Part shown: piece after piece, positions 28,730 through 48,641 of the stretch | Layout: each line of letters opens with the position of its first letter | How positions within the stretch are numbered: position 1 is the stretch's first letter | NCBI GenBank assembly: GCA_963664115.2 | Contig: CAXWPJ010000012.1 | Span: 128,001-192,000 of the forward strand | Direction: 5' to 3' | Length of the DNA: 64,000 nt | Source of the DNA: Terriglobia bacterium | Lineage (GTDB): Bacteria > Acidobacteriota > Terriglobia > 20CM-2-55-15 | Notes under the pieces: generated by a model | Database searches by the model: none | What the model saw: the letters and a program-made list of their open reading frames with translations, nothing else | What the model was told of the DNA's origin: nothing | Made by a program: the position numbers and the translations under genes

Positions 28730-28877
28730 ATGGGTTTTCAATCCATGGATTGGAGGCTGAATCGGGGAGACGCAGTGATGGTGGGGGGTGGTTGTAGCGG
28801 AAGAATGGGTTTTCAATCCATGGATTGGAGGCTGAATCGGGGAGACGCAGTGATGGTGGGGGGTGGTTGTAGCGGAA
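28730..28877. repeat. Tandem duplication, 75-bp period
   Basis: ATGGGTTTTCAATCC...GTAGCGGAA starts at 28730 and 28805. Confidence 0.92.
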
Positions 28878-29016: not shown

Positions 29017-30201
29017 CTACGCACTATCCTGAATTGGAACCTCCTTTGATTCGAGAGCGGCGAGCTGTGCCGCGGTTAATCGCTCGACCAGACGCATCGG
29101 TCCCCGGCAGATCGGACACGGTGCCGGTGGGGTAGCACCCGCCTCGGACTCCGGCTCGGTGATGGACTCCTGACCTAAGAGGTGCCGACAGAGTTCCAGC
29201 ATCGTCTTGCGTTTCCGATTTGCCATCCATCCGTAGTACCGGATGCGGGGAAAGCCTTTCGGTAAGACATGCAGGAGGAATCGACGGAGGAACTCTTCGG
29301 GTTGGAGTGTCATTGTTCGTGGACGGCCATTGTGGCGATAGTCCTTCCAGCGGAATGTAACGCCGGATTGGTTGACATCGAGGATGCGATGATTCGAGAT
29401 GGCCACCCGATGGGTATAGCGGGCCAGGTACTGAAGGACGTGTTGGGGTCCGCCGAATGGTTCTTTGGCGTACACCACCCAGTTCCGATCCTTCAGATCG
29501 TCGAGGAACCGCTCGAAGGTGGATTCGGTGGCCAGTTCCAGACACTCCCCATGGAAAACGAGCGTCTTGTTTCCGAAGGCTTCGGCTAAACCGTCGAGAA
29601 ACTTTTCTCTGAAAACGTAGCTGAGCTTCTGGACCGGGAGGAAGAAGTCGGTCCGGGAGGAGTGGATCCACCGGTCGTGATCCGGGGACAGTCCGCCACC
29701 GGGAACCACACAGTGGATATGGGGATGGCGTTGCAGGGTTTGTCCCCAGGTATGCAGGATGCTGAGGAATCCGATCTCGCCGCCCAGATACCTGGGGTTT
29801 CGGGCCACTTCGATCAGCGCCGCCGCACTGGTTCGGAACAGAAGCGCATAGAGCACCTTCTTGTTCTGCCAGATCAATGGGATCAACTGATGGGGCAGGC
29901 TGAAGACCAGATGGAAGTATCCGATCGGTAGCAGTTCCTGTTGCCGTTTCTCGACCCAGGTGTTCCGCGCATTGGTCTGGCACTTCGGGCAGTGGCGGTT
30001 CCGGCACGAGTGGTAGACCAGCGTTTGGTGGCCACAGTGGTCGCATCGTTTCCGGTTCCCGCCCAGTGCGGCGGTCCGGCAATGGGTAATCGCGTTGAGG
30101 ACCTTGACCTGGGGCCAGGCCAGCGCTTTCAAATACCGTTGTCGGAATCGGTCTCCGACGATGCGAATCACGTCAGCCACCTCAAAGGGTGGCCGGCTCA
30201 C
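29017..30201 (-). CDS. IS91-family (Y2 HUH) transposase
   Basis: Zn-binding SCRNRHCPKCQ, HTWG, HPHIH (HUH), YLARY. Confidence 0.92.
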   Translation of the reverse strand: MSRPPFEVADVIRIVGDRFRQRYLKALAWPQVKVLNAITHCRTAALGGNRKRCDHCGHQTLVYHSCRNRHCPKCQTNARNTWVEKRQQELLPIGYFHLVFSLPHQLIPLIWQNKKVLYALLFRTSAAALIEVARNPRYLGGEIGFLSILHTWGQTLQRHPHIHCVVPGGGLSPDHDRWIHSSRTDFFLPVQKLSYVFREKFLDGLAEAFGNKTLVFHGECLELATESTFERFLDDLKDRNWVVYAKEPFGGPQHVLQYLARYTHRVAISNHRILDVNQSGVTFRWKDYRHNGRPRTMTLQPEEFLRRFLLHVLPKGFPRIRYYGWMANRKRKTMLELCRHLLGQESITEPESEAGATPPAPCPICRGPMRLVERLTAAQLAALESKEVPIQDSA

Positions 30202-31079
30202 TTCTTTGGATCCTTAACCACAGGTGAAAGCTTCAACTGATCCAGAGGATTGCGCGCGGTTCGAAGATGGCGCCGGGACAGTTGCAGGTAGAGCGTGGTA
30301 TCGCTGAGCCGACTGTGTCCCATCAAGAGCTGGATCGTGCGCAAGTCGGTCCCGGACTCTAGCAGGTGGGTCGCGAAGCTGTGCCGTAGCGTGTGCGGAC
30401 CGATCCTCTGGGTCAGACCCGCACGCTGGGCGGCCCCATGAACGGCATGCCAGACCACCTTGTCCGAGATCGGAGCATCCGTGCCCCGGTGTCCTGCACT
30501 GCTGTGAAACAGATAGACCTCGGGCTTTTTCAATAACCAGTACCCCCGTAACGCTTCAAGCAGATTGCGACTCAACGGGACATCCCGGTCCCGACGCCCT
30601 TTCCCGTCGCGGATATGCACCAGCATCCGTTCACTGTCGATGTCGGCCACCTTCAACACGGCGGCTTCGGCCCGTCGCATCCCGGTCCCGTAGAGCACCA
30701 TCAGGATGGCCCGGTGCATCGGACTCAATGCGGCTTGGATCAACCGGCGGACTTCAGACGGACCCAGGATCGTGGGTAGTTTCCGCGCACTCTTGGGCAT
30801 GGGCAGATCATCCAGTTCCAGATCCGCACGTCGCAGCAGCACCTTCTTGTAAAGGAATCGTATCGCCGAGGTCCGCATCCCGACCGTACTCGCCGCCAGC
30901 TTCTTTTCGGTCAGTAAGTACAGCTGAAAACGCCGTACCTCCTCGGCTCCCATCAAGGCCGGAGACTTGCCGAAGTAATTCGCGAATTGTTCGACTGCCA
31001 GAATGTAGCCACGACTCGTGGCCGGGGAATAGTTCCGTCGCTGGAGTTCCTCCAGCATCCGTTCTCGTAGTTGGGTCAT
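30198..31079 (-). CDS. Tyrosine recombinase/integrase
   Basis: YGTGMR, GKGRRDR, HTLRHSFATHLLE, LMGH, TTLY. Confidence 0.92.
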   Translation of the reverse strand: MTQLRERMLEELQRRNYSPATSRGYILAVEQFANYFGKSPALMGAEEVRRFQLYLLTEKKLAASTVGMRTSAIRFLYKKVLLRRADLELDDLPMPKSARKLPTILGPSEVRRLIQAALSPMHRAILMVLYGTGMRRAEAAVLKVADIDSERMLVHIRDGKGRRDRDVPLSRNLLEALRGYWLLKKPEVYLFHSSAGHRGTDAPISDKVVWHAVHGAAQRAGLTQRIGPHTLRHSFATHLLESGTDLRTIQLLMGHSRLSDTTLYLQLSRRHLRTARNPLDQLKLSPVVKDPKK

Positions 31080-31328: not shown

Positions 31329-31350
31329 ATGGAATCTGGCACCAAACTAG
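31329..31350 (+). pseudogene. Ser/Thr kinase 5' stub truncated by IS1380
   Basis: ATGGAATCTGGCACCAAACT is identical to the starts of the 22103 and 46452 stubs. Confidence 0.7.
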
Positions 31351-33199
31351 GCCCTGAACAAGCGTGATTGACGAGGAAATGATAGTGCAATAAGAGCGGA
31401 AGTACCCGAAATGCCCCCTCTCCGTGCGAAAAAAACCTTGAACAGATTCTTCGGAAAAGGAGGCATTTCAGATGAACGATTATACGCGCAAGAACATGAG
31501 GAACCGCAAGCGGCGAATCGAACGTCGGCTTGGGGACCGGCATTGGACGGATCAGGTAGAGCCGATGTTTTCGGCGAGCAACATTCAGTACGAGATGGGA
31601 GAGCGGACGCGGGGCACATCGGTTGGTGGTATCGGGACGATGCAACTGGTGGCGCGGCGGACCGGGCTGATCGAAGCCATCGACAAGGGCGTGCATGTGT
31701 TGAAGCGGCACCTGCCGTATCACGAGTCGGATCACGTGCTGAACATCGCCTACAACGCCTTGAGCGGAGGAACGTGCCTGGAAGACATCGAACTGCGGCG
31801 CAACGATGCGGTGTATCTGGATGCGCTGGGAGCGCAACGGATTCCGGATCCGACGACGGCGGGAGACTTCTGCCGGAGATTCGAGGCCGACGACGTGGAG
31901 TGTCTGATGGAGGCAACCAATCAAGTCCGGCTCGGAGTCTGGCGACAGCAACCGGCGGCGTTTTTCGAAGAAGCGGTGTTGGACGCGGACGGGACACTGG
32001 CCGAAACCACGGGGGAATGCAAGCAAGGGATGGACGTGGCCTACGACGGGACGTGGGGATATCACCCGCTGATGATCTCGCTGGCCAACACCGCCGAACC
32101 GCTGTATCTGGTCAATCGTAGCGGCAACCGGCCGTCGCATGAAGGAGCCGCGGTCCGGTTCGACCAAGCCATCGCATTGTGCCGGCATGCGGGGTTTCGC
32201 CAGATCCTGCTGCGCGGGGACACGGACTTCAGCCAGACCCGGCATCTGGACGGATGGGACGACCAGCAGGTGGGTTTCATATTCGGGATTGACGCGATGG
32301 CGAACCTGAAGGCCCGGGCCGATGAACTGGAGCCGCGCCAGTGGAAGCGCCTGGAACGGCCCGCGAAATACGACGTGGCGACCGAACCGCGCCAACGTCC
32401 CGACAACGTGAAGGAAGAGATCGTTCGGCAGCGCGGTTTCGACAATATCCGCTTGCAGGGTGAGGATGTGGCCGAGTTTCGGTATCGACCCGGAGCCTGC
32501 GATCGGGACTACCGTGTCGTCGTGGTGCGGAAGAATCTGTCGGTGGCCAAAGGAGAGCAGGTGTTGTTTGACGACATCCGGTACTTCTTCTACATTACCA
32601 ACCGTTCGGATCCGGCCGACCAGATTGTGATGCGTGCCAATCAACGGTGCAATCAGGAGAATCTCATTGAGCAGTTGAAGAACGGCGTTCAGGCGTTGCG
32701 GATGCCGGTCGGAGATCAGACCAGCAACTGGGCCTACATGGTGATCGCGTCACTGGCCTGGACACTGAAAGCGTGGTTTGCATTGCTGCTTCCCGAAACC
32801 GGACGTTGGGGCCAAAAATATCAGGCTGAGAAGCAAACCGTGCTGCGCATGGAGTTCAAAACCTTCTTGAACGCTTTCATGCTTGTGCCGTGCCAACTCG
32901 TGCGCACCGGGCGGCGCATTCTGTTCCGGATCCTGGCCTGGAACCGGTGGTTGCCGGTCTTGTTCCGCGGGGTGGATGTGTTGCGTCAGCCTCTGCGATG
33001 TTGACCCGATCATGACTCTGAGCCCGGGCGATCGAGGTCCCGGTTTCTGTCAACCGTCCAACACCAGCGAGGCTGAACTGAAACAGATTCAACAGAAACT
33101 CGATACCTGGAACAGGCCATCCGGGAACGGGATTCTATGCCTCGAATTCTATCGGCGCGAACTGGGCCTCGGCGGACTGGTTATGCGCTTGTTTTGGGT
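31351..33199 (+). mobile_element. IS1380-family insertion sequence
   Basis: IRs CCCTGAACAAGCG / CGCTTGTTTTGGG, CTAG on both flanks, transposase inside. Confidence 0.85.
31472..33004 (+). CDS. IS1380-family DDE transposase
   Basis: LDADGT, GYHPL, LRGD, RCNQENLIEQLK, NWAYM motifs. Confidence 0.9.
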   Translation: MNDYTRKNMRNRKRRIERRLGDRHWTDQVEPMFSASNIQYEMGERTRGTSVGGIGTMQLVARRTGLIEAIDKGVHVLKRHLPYHESDHVLNIAYNALSGGTCLEDIELRRNDAVYLDALGAQRIPDPTTAGDFCRRFEADDVECLMEATNQVRLGVWRQQPAAFFEEAVLDADGTLAETTGECKQGMDVAYDGTWGYHPLMISLANTAEPLYLVNRSGNRPSHEGAAVRFDQAIALCRHAGFRQILLRGDTDFSQTRHLDGWDDQQVGFIFGIDAMANLKARADELEPRQWKRLERPAKYDVATEPRQRPDNVKEEIVRQRGFDNIRLQGEDVAEFRYRPGACDRDYRVVVVRKNLSVAKGEQVLFDDIRYFFYITNRSDPADQIVMRANQRCNQENLIEQLKNGVQALRMPVGDQTSNWAYMVIASLAWTLKAWFALLLPETGRWGQKYQAEKQTVLRMEFKTFLNAFMLVPCQLVRTGRRILFRILAWNRWLPVLFRGVDVLRQPLRC

Positions 33200-33243
33200 C
33201 TAGGGGCGTCCTTTCATACTGCGATTTAACAGGACTTGAGAAT
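33199..33243 (+). mobile_element. Solo IS1111-type end fused to the right half of a dif-like site
   Basis: TCTAGGGGCGTCCTTTCATACTGCGAT-TTAACAGGACTTGA is identical to 41134-41174. Confidence 0.85.
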
Positions 33244-33657: not shown

Positions 33658-33892
33658 GACGCCACTATCTCATAGGACGGCACTGAACCGACTCTTTCAA
33701 TCTGGCTTTGAAAATCTCGATAAAGAAACATGAAAGCAAGAGGTCGCGCGACGGCCTGCGGCCGCGACGATTCGTCCTCGGCAACGCCGAATGGTAGAGC
33801 TATTCACTTCCGCAGGATAGGTAAACCCTTGGCGACTTATCGTTAGTAATCCGGCGTTATTTCAGTTCCTAGGCACTTCTCCCCGAAGTTCA

Positions 33893-33927
33893 ACGTCCGA
33901 GAAGATGATTTGTCAGGACTTGACCTC
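33893..33927 (+). repeat. dif-like palindromic site (intact 11-6-11)
   Basis: ACGTCCGAGAA-GATGAT-TTGTCAGGACT-TGACCTC. Confidence 0.8.
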
Positions 33928-38288: not shown

Positions 38289-38382
38289 ACTCCCGAAAAA
38301 CGCCGTTGTCGGAAGCTGAGAAACCCCAGTAATTTGCCCAATTCTCAAGTGACGCGAAGATGATTTCTCAGGACCTGAGAAT
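38289..38382. repeat. Two back-to-back dif-like sites
   Basis: Minus strand TTTCTCA-GCTTCCGACAA-CGGCGT-TTTTCGGGAGT (38289-38323); plus strand ATTCTCA-AGTGACGCGAA-GATGAT-TTCTCAGGACC-TGAGAAT (38341-38382). Confidence 0.7.
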
Positions 38383-38980: not shown

Positions 38981-39268
38981 TTGAGGCCCTCCAGCCTGTG
39001 ATTGAAACGCCCCGGATAGAAAGAATAAGAGGCCCTTTCCTGCTAGAAATGGGGTGAGTCTGTGGCAATTCTTTCGCTCCAGCAAGGGAAATGCAAGGAA
39101 AATACGGTCCGCAGCACGAACTGAAGAACCAAGCATCGGTTGAGGTAACGAAAAGTGATGTCGATGGTGGTCTCCTCAGGGCTGGGAGGCGCCGCGCTGT
39201 GGCACCTCGTTGAGTGACCTAACCCACAAGAATTGGACCGAGAACAGTCCAATCACAAGGAGAGAGAA

Positions 39269-39556
39269 GTGAAGAAATTTGTGCTGCTCCATTACGGATT
39301 CGAGAAGCCCACCCCAGAGATCATGAAGGGATGGGAAACCTGGTTCGAGTCAATCGCCGACAGGACGGTTGATAACGGTGGTTTCAGCGGCGGGCGAGAG
39401 ATCTCCGCCTCTGGGACAAAGGACCTCCCATGGGGAATGGAGTCCATCACTGGCTACACGATTATCCAAGCCGAGAGCCTTGACGAGGCAGAGAAGATCG
39501 CTCAAGACAATCCCTATATCGCGAGCATCCGAGTCTACGAGGTCAGGGGGATGTAG
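39269..39556 (+). CDS. YciI/DGPF-like small protein
   Basis: ITGYTIIQAESLDEAEKIAQDNP...IRVYE, AAGGAG RBS. Confidence 0.75.
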   Translation: MKKFVLLHYGFEKPTPEIMKGWETWFESIADRTVDNGGFSGGREISASGTKDLPWGMESITGYTIIQAESLDEAEKIAQDNPYIASIRVYEVRGM

Positions 39557-39789
39557 CGTGCCTGACTCACAAGGAGGCACCAACCCACTGGCGGGATTCT
39601 CAACGTCCGAGAAGATGATCTATGAAAGGGGATGTCAAGAGAAACAGCTCCCCGATGGCCGGCCAGACGGACACTTTTGTCGTGACAGCCAGCCCCTCTA
39701 CCGTTATGTGAAGCCCTGGTTCCGGCAATCCGCAGCGAAATCGTACATCTTTAAGACGGTCGATTCAGAAACTGAACAGCATATGGGAC

Positions 39790-39985
39790 GGCATGTGCCG
39801 ACCATGGATCTATCTGAGCCTCGAAGGCTATCGCTGTTTCAGGTCGTGCGAGGGGGGATAGAGATTTAAAAGTGTCCTCTGGACGTATCCAGGGACCACA
39901 TCTTGTGCAGATCCTCACCCTCGATCCTCAGTTGTTCCGACTCCGTCTAACGACTCAGTACGGCTCTACCGGTCACGGATCGAAA
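39790..39985 (-). ncRNA. Putative bridge/seek RNA of the IS1111-type element
   Basis: Two closed stem-loop units whose internal loops match the target (GATTTAA, CATCTTGT) and the donor junction (GATCTAT, ATCGC); ends approximate. Confidence 0.6.
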
Positions 39986-39989
39986 CGGC

Positions 39990-41054
39990 TTATGTTGTCA
40001 TCCAGCTCAGTTTCTTTGGATCGAACGATTCTCCTTTCTTCCAAAGCGTCAGCACCAGTGCGGCGATCTTACGGGCCAGAGTGACCCGCGCCATTTCCTC
40101 CCGCATCCCACGCATCTGGAGACTCTCCAGATAAATCCGATACGGCTCGCTTTGTTTTCCCGATGCCGCGGCTGAGAAGAACACCGACTTCAATCGCCGG
40201 TTGCAGTTCGCATTCAATCCGCGTGTGGCCACCGGTTTCCTCCGTCGCACCACACGTCCACTCTGCATCTCATACTCCGCGCTCATGTGGGTCACCACAC
40301 CCAGGCCACTGTAGCTCCAGAACTGCGGTGTCGTGCGGAATCGGTACGGCGTGTCCACGATGGCGACGATCTGTGCCGCCCGAACCGGTCCCAGTTGTGG
40401 AATGGTCTCGAGCAGTTTCACCGCCTCATGGTGCCGGCCCTCCACTCGCACCGCTTTTCTGGATTGTTTCCGCAGCAACTGGACCTGGTCCAGTTCCGCA
40501 TACAACCATCGGGCGCGCTGCCTCATCCCCGGCTCGGTCAGCTTCTCCAACCACTGTTCGCGCTGACTCGGCCGATAGACTCCGTCCTTCGGTGTCGGGA
40601 TCCCCCGTCCCCGGTATATCGCTTTGATCCGCGACATCACCCGTTGCGTGTCCAACTGGAACGTGTCATAGGCCTGCACCAGTTGCTTCAATTCTCGCGT
40701 CGCTTCATGGCCGTGATACACCGAGCGCAACAGTCCCACCCGCAACAGCTCGGCCAGCTTCCGCGCATCCGGCTTATCCCCCTTCGACCCTTCTTGCATC
40801 CACTTGTTCTGTCGCGGATCGCACACCACCACCTCGCTCACCCACGGCCGGATCACTTCCGATAACCAGCCCGCTTGCGTGGTCTCCTCCAACCCCACGT
40901 GCATCGGCCCACTCAATCCCTCCAGCAGCCGTGTGATACTCCCCGCCTCGGTTTCCACGATCGTTTCAAACACCAGTTTGCCGCTCCCGTCTCTCACCGC
41001 AACCACCGTCGTTGCCTGGTGCACATCCATACCCATATACTTGTCTTGTTTCAT
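39990..41054 (-). CDS. IS110-family DEDD recombinase/transposase
   Basis: YMGMDVH, GLEET, KGDKPDARKLA, TIPQLGP, YSGL, catalytic Ser candidate in HMSA. Confidence 0.9.
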   Translation of the reverse strand: MKQDKYMGMDVHQATTVVAVRDGSGKLVFETIVETEAGSITRLLEGLSGPMHVGLEETTQAGWLSEVIRPWVSEVVVCDPRQNKWMQEGSKGDKPDARKLAELLRVGLLRSVYHGHEATRELKQLVQAYDTFQLDTQRVMSRIKAIYRGRGIPTPKDGVYRPSQREQWLEKLTEPGMRQRARWLYAELDQVQLLRKQSRKAVRVEGRHHEAVKLLETIPQLGPVRAAQIVAIVDTPYRFRTTPQFWSYSGLGVVTHMSAEYEMQSGRVVRRRKPVATRGLNANCNRRLKSVFFSAAASGKQSEPYRIYLESLQMRGMREEMARVTLARKIAALVLTLWKKGESFDPKKLSWMTT

Positions 41055-41183
41055 CTCGAACGCTCCTTTTCTGGGATCAACGCTGTATACGTTGATCAGG
41101 TTGTTGAGTGAGTCTTCTCTCAACAACCCCCAGTCTAGGGGCGTCCTTTCATACTGCGATTTAACAGGACTTGACCTCGTAAA

Positions 41184-41297
41184 TCAGGGCACCGGCACCC
41201 GTTCTTTCAGTTCTTCAAACCAGTTGAGGACGATGTTGATTCTTGGGCGCTCGGTTTCTTCCAAGTCGGCCCGCTACTCGGGAGTTGGCACGACGAT
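41184..41297 (-). pseudogene. Kinase 3' stub
   Basis: ...PE*RADLEETERPRINIVLNWFEELKERVPVP*. Confidence 0.8.
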
Positions 41298-41471
41298 TCA
41301 GTAAACATTACGGCGTTGGTGGGAAGTAATAGGCTCGATGTCTTGAACGTCGACTACGCCACAATGAATCGCTTGCAGTTGCCGGACTAACGGGCGAGAC
41401 TAAAAACACACGAGCGTCGGCAGACAACCTGGCGTTCTTGCCTGCTTAACAAATCATCGGAGGTAAGTATC

Positions 41472-41954
41472 ATGCGCGGAGCAATGCTGTTTGCGGCCGG
41501 ACTCTTCGTTGGGTTGGCCGTAAGTGTGGGGATGGCGCAAAACGCCAACAGTAATGTCGTGATGATGAATCACGTGGGCATCAACGTGCCGGACATCCCG
41601 GATGCGATGACATACTACACCGAGACAATGGGCTACCGGGAAGCGTTCCGTCTCAACGACGACAACGGGCAGCCGAGGCTGGTCTACATGCACATCAGCG
41701 AAAACACGTTCCTTGAGCTCGGGCAGGCGAACGCGCAACGGCCTGCAGGTTTCAGCCATTATGGGCTGCACGTCGAGAACGTGGCAGACGCCGTCGCACG
41801 GTTCAGAAGGGACGGCGCAACTGTCAGTGATACCCGCACCAGCGATACCAAAGCGATCCTCGCCAACATCACTGATCCGTACATGGGCCGCATCGAATTG
41901 GCCGAACTCCCTCCGGAGTCCCTGCATTACAAGGCCATTCAGAGCTGGAATTGA
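41472..41954 (+). CDS. VOC/glyoxalase family secreted protein
   Basis: NHVGINV, FLEL, SHYGLHV, DP..GRIEL. Confidence 0.85.
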   Translation: MRGAMLFAAGLFVGLAVSVGMAQNANSNVVMMNHVGINVPDIPDAMTYYTETMGYREAFRLNDDNGQPRLVYMHISENTFLELGQANAQRPAGFSHYGLHVENVADAVARFRRDGATVSDTRTSDTKAILANITDPYMGRIELAELPPESLHYKAIQSWN

Positions 41955-48133: not shown

Positions 48134-48444
48134 GTTCGGTGTTCCGCACACTCCAGACGGTACTGTCAACTTGGGCTCGCTGAAGTTGTTACAGGTCGTT
48201 CAGTCAGAACTTCGGCGTGACGTTCCGTCTTCATTACCAATGAACTACGTCCGTTAGATCAGGTGCTGCGGCGATGAAACAAAGCAATGAAGCTGGCACC
48301 CGCAAACGTGACAGTTGCCCCGCATAACCTCACCACTCCACCAACTCCTTCTCCGTAAGCTCCTGGAAGCACCTCGGACACTTCGCAGCCGCTGACAGGA
48401 GGCCACGCCCAATTCTTTGAAGTTTTCAGGAATTACAGATGTCA

Positions 48445-48472
48445 ACTTCCGACAAGATGATTTATCAGACTA
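48445..48472 (+). repeat. dif-like palindromic site (11-6-11)
   Basis: ACTTCCGACAA-GATGAT-TTATCAGACTA. Confidence 0.75.
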
Positions 48473-48641
48473 ACGACAATAAGCCTCAGGCTTTCTAACG
48501 CAAGCTGTTTAGAGGCTCCCTGGGAGTTGTGCAATCTACCGATTAATGAGCGCTGATTTGAGGTCTATTTAGAAGCTGACGGTCGCTGTAAGCCTTTTGA
48601 AAGGATCTTGTGACGAGTACAACGTAAGCAGAAATGATGTC

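Follow-up and report, generated by a model that had tools for sequence, protein, structure and literature searches.

The window (the whole stretch of Terriglobia DNA that was analysed, 64,000 nt) contains an IS1111-group element of the IS110 family at positions 39619-41159 on the minus strand, with a length of 1541 bp when one 2-nt core is counted. The element carries a gene for a DEDD/Ser transposase/recombinase of 354 aa (P0001; 39990-41054, minus strand) with the domains PF01548 and PF02371, in which the residues D10, E56, D93, D96 and S258 were invariant in all aligned homologues (10/10). The protein has distant PDB matches to IS621 (8WT6, E 3e-5) and ISCro4 (9T56, E 3e-7), and its score against NCBIfam NF033542 was 122 bits, below the cut-off of 140 bits, indicating that P0001 is a divergent IS110 member. 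The non-coding DNA amounts to ~370 nt downstream of the transposase gene, compared to ~105 nt upstream. The subterminal inverted repeats at the right end (39621-39629, TATGAAAGG) and the left end (41145-41153, CCTTTCATA) are recognisable from the sequence, are kept in homologues and form a perfect 9-bp pair, a length inside the 7-17 bp range given in the part of PMC11208160 drawn on here. In the Hall convention, the element extends beyond the inverted repeats by 7 nt on the left and 3 nt on the right if the count starts from their inner 8 bp.

The element lies in the centre of a 42-bp quasi-palindromic repeat, the left half of which (39596-39618, plus strand) ends in the GA core, while the right half follows at 41160-41178 (plus strand). 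The source genome (G000) contains 7 copies of the element with 99.7-100% identity, together with one end remnant. All 7 copies were inserted at the same base of the repeat and in one orientation, with different outer flanks, so the placement in the palindrome centre, as proposed in the first-pass annotation, exceeds chance. The end remnant is the 28-bp stretch at 33198-33225 (minus strand), which is joined to the right half of a repeat beside an IS1380-like element; it sits in the repeat as do all 7 copies, and none of them was found at an unrelated sequence. An empty allele also exists, since the occupied locus on contig C11 has an empty twin on contig C6 that equals the reconstructed site at 798 of 800 bases and holds a single GAT. 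Insertion thus adds no extra bases (7/7 copies; empty allele with a single core). The sequence strings quoted in the first-pass annotation were all recovered at their positions, and deletion of 39620-41160 restored the palindrome. Its reading of GAT at both junctions was revised in one respect, because comparison of the homologues gave a shared core of 2 nt (GA on the plus strand), not GAT. The third base is variable on the target side (G in genomes G001 and G021) and fixed on the element side, which places the element with one core at 39619-41159. These results demonstrate an intact insertion sequence of the IS1111 group whose copies all lie centrally in a chromosomal repeat of 42 bp, and nowhere else.

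The non-coding end encodes a predicted RNA with two loops, both on the minus strand. The predicted target-binding loop (39849-39923) is closed by the stem 39849-59/39911-23 and contains two guides and an inner hairpin. The first target guide (39899-39906, minus strand; RNA ACAAGAUG) equals target positions 1-8 and varies with the insertion site across homologues, and the second (39863-39869, minus strand; RNA UUAAAUC, plus-strand text GATTTAA) is complementary to target positions 8-14 and is supported by covariation and by an occupancy bias. The plus-strand text CATCTTGT at 39899-906 has one mismatch to the occupied copy of the repeat and none to the copy at 48445, just as first described. The predicted donor-binding loop (39799-39846), with the stem CGACC/GGTCG and helices 3 and 4, contains an imperfect left donor guide (ATCGCTGT, 39830-37) and a perfect right donor guide (plus-strand GATCTAT, 39807-13). 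Folding of the single sequence gave both loops, as the first-pass annotation had anticipated, in a fold that was not significant (z -1.03; 31 of 200 shuffles as good); support for the RNA structure comes from the alignment. The 28-pair structure was paired in 96.5% of cells in 34 homologous regions, compared to 37-49% in slid controls. Two-sided changes were found in 12 of the 28 pairs across the 34 homologues, a result matched by 0/500 shuffles, and covariation was present in helices 1 and 2 of the target-binding loop. The stems were conserved and the guide segments hypervariable in the homologue alignment.

On the donor side, both guides had been said to match the circle junction. This held for the right guide: in 78 of 87 records its last 3 nt are identical to the end of the element, and in four variants the two change together. 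The left guide ACAGCGAT agreed with the junction ACTGCGAT at only 7 of 9 positions here (9-nt window), and at ~4 of 9 in AC-core homologues. As the left donor guide is imperfect, the data support recognition of the donor by RNA only in part.

We then compared guides with insertion sites across the homologues, starting from 123 protein hits in fetched loci, from which 24 without a right end or loop and 19 duplicates were removed to leave 80 junction records. For the first (left) guide, 4.82 of 7 positions agreed with its own flank, compared to 2.21 against the flanks of other classes (34 classes; 0/20,000 permutations), in a register that was picked after inspection of an earlier tabulation and that differs by one base between the TC-core and AC-core subfamilies. 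The left guide of the element itself accordingly scored 1/7 in a single fixed register and 7/7 in the shifted register of the TC-core subfamily. The second (right) guide matched its own flank at 4.25 of 5 positions, compared to 1.54 in cross comparisons (19 classes; 0/20,000 permutations). Alternative guide registers scored 2.26, 2.13, 3.27 and 2.14. The target guides thus change with the insertion sites, the covariation proposed as a check at the outset, with permutation values (0/20,000) that overstate the significance because the homologues are kin and not independent.

The same relationship was present inside the genome. C at target position 2 together with A at position 13, the bases that match the guides, occurred in 6 of 7 occupied copies of the repeat, whereas of the 127 empty copies 6 had both bases (Fisher P 9e-7, for copies that are not fully independent). 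The genome contains ten 14-mers with at most one mismatch to the predicted target, and 10/10 lie in repeat copies; the sole perfect empty match is the twin of the occupied locus. Two close relatives carried an identical guide or one that differed by 1 nt: a metagenome element (L145, 94% aa identity), with guides as here and inserted in the repeat, and a fragment in genome G002 (L060, 97.5% aa identity), which also sits in the repeat. Relatives with 64-70% identity in genomes G001 and G003 carried other guides and used other targets, though both genomes carry the repeat. The specialisation therefore lies in the guide setting and not in the protein lineage. The earlier description of a recombinase specialised on these sites accordingly stands as regards RNA-guided targeting of the repeat, and not as regards the protein.

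Public sequencing runs and databases were also searched for the element and its RNA. Positions 30000-52000 of the window had no match in Rfam. Four RNA runs (X17-X20, contigs only) gave only short, low-depth pieces. One low-depth contig of run X19 joins 40064 back to 39863 within the predicted RNA region, and it may be a chimera. The DNA runs X1, X2, X5 and X6 contain the element, and their read depth was not taken as copy number; joints listed with sides of 20-41 nt in repeated DNA were not counted as rearrangement. No circle junction or excision product was present among the joints listed for the RNA and DNA runs. Three runs from one study labelled sponge metagenome contain 58-70% of the words sampled from positions 39000-41800 of the window.

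Copies, occupancy and covariation agree on an IS1111-type element with a two-loop bridge/seek RNA whose target loop is set on the repeat, in line with the first-pass annotation. Insertion into the centre of the repeat very probably proceeds by RNA-guided recombination with the predicted RNA from the 3' end of the element. By analogy with published work on IS621 and ISEc11, the element would excise as a circle, and the circle junction would create a promoter from which both the transposase gene and the RNA are transcribed. An outward-facing TTGACA (39633-39638, minus strand), which is present in aligned homologues and lies 19 nt from the right end, is likely the -35 box of such a junction-only promoter, a function suggested by PMC11187229; the matching -10 at 17-nt spacing is weak. 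The target loop would pair with both strands of a 14-bp stretch over the repeat spacer, and the donor loop with the junction of the circle. Strand exchange at the core would be catalysed by the DEDD/Ser enzyme. The repeat is a multi-copy safe harbour, used in common by insertion sequences of at least three types. A different mechanism, in which the transposase reads the palindrome shape or a bound protein and the loop matches are incidental, appears most improbable. It would fit the absence of detected RNA in the four RNA runs (contigs; short, low-depth pieces) and the insertion of an IS30-family element in the repeat (13/19 ends), which indicates that the repeat attracts elements by other routes; to our knowledge, the IS30 family has no guide RNA. 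However, close homologues with identical ends insert into targets that are neither related to the repeat nor palindromic and that agree with the guides of the homologue concerned, insertion inside the repeat family tracks the variant bases that match the guide, and a second IS1111-type element changes arm together with its guides, all of which argue for guidance by RNA.

We next compared the element with described systems, beginning with the seekRNA IS1111 elements ISEc11, ISKpn4, ISPst6 and ISPa11 as they are presented in the relevant passages of PMC11187229. The element shares with them the DEDD transposase, the long downstream non-coding region, the subterminal inverted repeats with 7+3 nt extensions, the guide order (top-strand complement before bottom-strand match), the use of one target in one orientation, and natural reprogramming in relatives. 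It differs from those described there in its inverted repeat (9 bp, compared to the usual 11-13) and in a target that is neither attC nor a known REP, and its RNA is at the level of a prediction. With the IS621 bridge RNA (PMC11208160, in the part considered; PDB 8WT6) and ISCro4 (PDB 9T56), it shares two internal loops, a 14-bp target around a 2-nt core, the conserved catalytic serine and insertion into a multi-copy palindromic repeat. Unlike these, its RNA is in the right end, its core is GA/TC and not CT, its protein is distant and its left donor guide is imperfect.

The IS1111-attC group was reportedly treated by Tetu and Holmes in 2008 and by Post and Hall in 2009. As that group appears in the section of PMC11187229 used here, it resembles the present case in that an IS1111 element occupies what is putatively a recombination site, repeated within gene arrays, whereas the present target fails the attC features and is entered in its central spacer. 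The pdif/dif modules with IS1202 (PMC13141974, PMC12907356 and PMC10132070, each in part) are similar in having two arms and a 6-bp spacer, and in that clustered sites bound accessory DNA and draw insertion sequences. In contrast to what is described there, the present repeat has no canonical XerD arm, a conserved stretch of ~34 bp instead of 28, a mostly direct orientation, ~170 chromosomal copies, and visitors of the IS1111 and IS30 types instead of IS1202.

The repeat consists of two arms around a 6-bp spacer, 42 bp in total, of which positions 4-37 are conserved. A spacer-blind scan found 169 intact sites in the source genome, for a family of ~170 copies, and none in one shuffled contig strand. 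The spacer was GATGAT at 127 of the 169 sites and [TG]GTCGT at 20, and the rest were scattered. The sites are clustered, with a median spacing of 2.4 kb and equal orientation in 90 of 120 neighbours. Besides the occupied copy, the window contains an empty copy (33886-33927, plus strand), an empty and partly degenerate copy (38341-38382, plus strand), and a copy with an intact left arm and a broken right arm (48438-48479, plus strand), which has one mismatch to the 14-nt guide target. Repeat positions in the window are 24215, 31211, 33904, 38359, 46548 and 48456. The repeat was present in 9 of 61 related genomes, with 126, 88, 42, 10, 3, 2, 1, 1 and 1 matches (reversed control, 0), and these bearers belong to only two genera of one family. 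A scan across species gave 12 stretches, each with Terriglobia in its title, and the viral contigs had no exact match.

The sites are associated with genes for one Ser/Thr kinase family. The 3'-end remnant of such a gene adjoins 64 of the 127 GATGAT sites, and 13 of the 20 sites of the second class ([TG]GTCGT) precede a kinase start. Among the 38 kinase starts found, 4 run for at least 870 aa; most copies are truncated within ~20-220 codons, followed by unrelated DNA. A comparison of 17,578 pairs of sites showed sharing of the left flank only in 31, of the right flank only in 100 and of both in 9, and site-to-site segments of 389 bp and 1289 bp recur with different neighbours. The variable arm bases were linked to neither flank (0.60 and 0.54, compared to a baseline of 0.58). 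When copies in G000 and G002 were considered, the arm bases were not inherited with the flank even for the 1289-bp segment, which is 99.5% identical in two places. In G002, 46 segments from 19 fetched stretches were examined, and none of them was shared as a whole with G000. In the source genome, C6:37000-48400 and C11:1-8000 form a near-identical duplicated array with the element in one only, which may represent strain haplotypes or a true duplication.

Other mobile elements also end in the repeat. For a second IS110-family (IS1111-type) element, 24% identical, 7 of 9 left ends lie in the repeat, and its loop in the source genome reads the right arm of the repeat. In a G002 variant of this element the guides are altered, and insertion occurs in the left arm, at the corresponding mirror position. 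This second element is represented by G000:C5:47876-49346 (L201) and its copies, and in G002 by L090, L091, L098 and L100. IS30-family ends lie in the repeat in 13 of 19 cases; the element at G000:C12:495148-496390 (L200) and related ends are located inside the repeat spacer in either orientation, with a 5-bp duplication in several cases, and also occur in G002. The convergence of these elements marks a long-lived multi-copy target and is not by itself evidence of function.

Further elements lie nearby in the window. A pair comprising a tyrosine recombinase and an IS91-type Y2 transposase is located at 29017-31079; it has at least six identical copies in the genome, several of which start within ~200 bp of a repeat copy. 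An exact 73-nt direct repeat, with two copies 75 nt apart, is located at 28730-28877 by the end of the IS91-type element. The IS1380-like element at 31350-33225 is bordered on the right by the terminal 28 bp of the IS1111 element and on the left by a kinase start. One of the seven element copies is divided by an IS1380-like element; on contig C9, the IS1380-like element found here splits a full copy at that same 28-bp point. This arrangement points to a recombination event involving two IS1380 copies or to a join made in assembly.

We finally considered what the repeat may be. The first-pass annotation had called it a conserved, functional target; a stable multi-copy sequence is indeed present, but a functional cassette site is not established by targeting, and the attC features fail. 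IS110-family elements also target REP repeats (PMC11208160 and PMC11187229, in the parts cited), so targeting shows only that the sequence is stable and multi-copy. We tentatively favour, as a reading that may well be right, a site-specific recombination site at which most likely the host XerC/XerD act outside dif and exchange accessory segments in arrays. The two arms and the 6-bp spacer of two main classes have a dif-like geometry, and the left arm agrees with the XerC arm of the dif of the source genome at 8 of 11 positions. Mirror positions showed no compensatory change (odds ratio 1.14, P 0.84), which fits binding of a duplex and not a hairpin. The oriented neighbours (90/120) at a median of 2.4 kb, the re-assorted flanks (31 left only, 100 right only and 9 both, of 17,578 pairs) and the 389-bp and 1289-bp segments that recur with other neighbours point in the same direction. 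In addition, genome G003 (42 sites) encodes 7 tyrosine recombinases, and close orthologues over the full length (70-85%) are present in the source genome for just three of them, namely XerC, XerD and a 422-aa integrase. Against this, the right arm has no more than 5 of 11 positions in common with the XerD arm and is without TTATGT, the sites mostly do not alternate as dif modules must according to the portion of PMC13141974 used, arm variants unlinked to flanks would not result from simple crossover in the spacer, and no whole segment was common to G000 and the 46 G002 segments examined. The repeat was rejected as the chromosomal dif, since dif occurs once, at a site of its own that relatives also keep. 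It was also rejected as a canonical pdif/dif site, given its XerD arm (5/11) and its orientation (90/120 same).

A REP element forms a single-strand hairpin with compensatory pairing and is mobilised by RAYT. A selfish or structural interspersed repeat, either REP-like or a scar left by the end of an element, which gene conversion or some other enzyme would have spread and which would have no cassette function, seems rather unlikely. Arms that vary independently of their flanks would suit it, as would the 64 of 127 GATGAT sites at a kinase 3' remnant, resembling a repeat placed after a gene, and the known targeting of REP repeats by IS110-family elements (PMC11208160, in part). It is at odds with the lack of hairpin covariation at the one informative mirror pair, the clustering in oriented arrays instead of a genome-wide spread, and the two discrete spacer classes with consistent places around kinase genes. 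Integron attC sites have invariant GTT/AAC ends, a hairpin with compensatory pairing and a linked IntI. An identity of the repeats as attC sites served by the IntI of the source genome is very unlikely: although this IntI scores above the TIGR02249 cut-off and IS1111-attC elements exist (PMC11187229, in the passages used), the repeat is 42 bp long, the base at the would-be invariant G of GTT varies, hairpin covariation is lacking, and IntI lies ~125 kb from the nearest site, is not found in G003 (42 sites) and yet occurs in genomes without the repeat. The integron integrase gene, at G000:C9:714608-715549 and above the family cut-off, is far from the repeat arrays, and IntI was rejected as the recombinase of the repeat since it does not track the repeat across genomes. 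A 316-aa tyrosine recombinase (P0002, L081; G000:C5:52189-53139) lies between two outward-facing sites, each followed by a kinase start. P0002 was likewise rejected as the repeat recombinase, being present in genomes without the repeat and not found at E<=1e-40 in G002 and G003.

The repeat is likely a double-stranded, protein-bound recombination site. Its role as a working cassette site is plausible, with the recombinase at the level of a candidate. It is conceivable, and we put it forward with reserve, that the repeat is the recombination site of an undescribed chromosomal cassette system in one lineage of Terriglobia, with ~170 Xer-like sites in oriented arrays around Ser/Thr kinase genes of one family, most of them hollowed out and refilled by other genes, and stable enough for two unrelated RNA-guided elements and an IS30 element to have become independently tuned to it, one of them reprogrammed from arm to arm.

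The bridge/seekRNA mechanism is already published, so the element belongs to a known kind and leaves the known mechanism unchanged. The literature searched, with supplements and most subscription journals outside its scope, contained no description of the repeat; a relative of the element could be among the targets tabulated in PMC11208160. The target repeat thus appears undescribed and appears to be the more interesting part. The element belongs to a naturally reprogrammed IS1111 subfamily in which 34 guide classes share one RNA scaffold of ~130 nt with TC and AC cores, and which is usable for testing guide rules and as a candidate programmable recombinase. Reading its guides exposes a repeat family without a match in Rfam or in the literature searched. 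If the repeat is indeed a recombination site, it would constitute a large system for gene shuffling, distinct both from integrons and from canonical arrays of dif modules.
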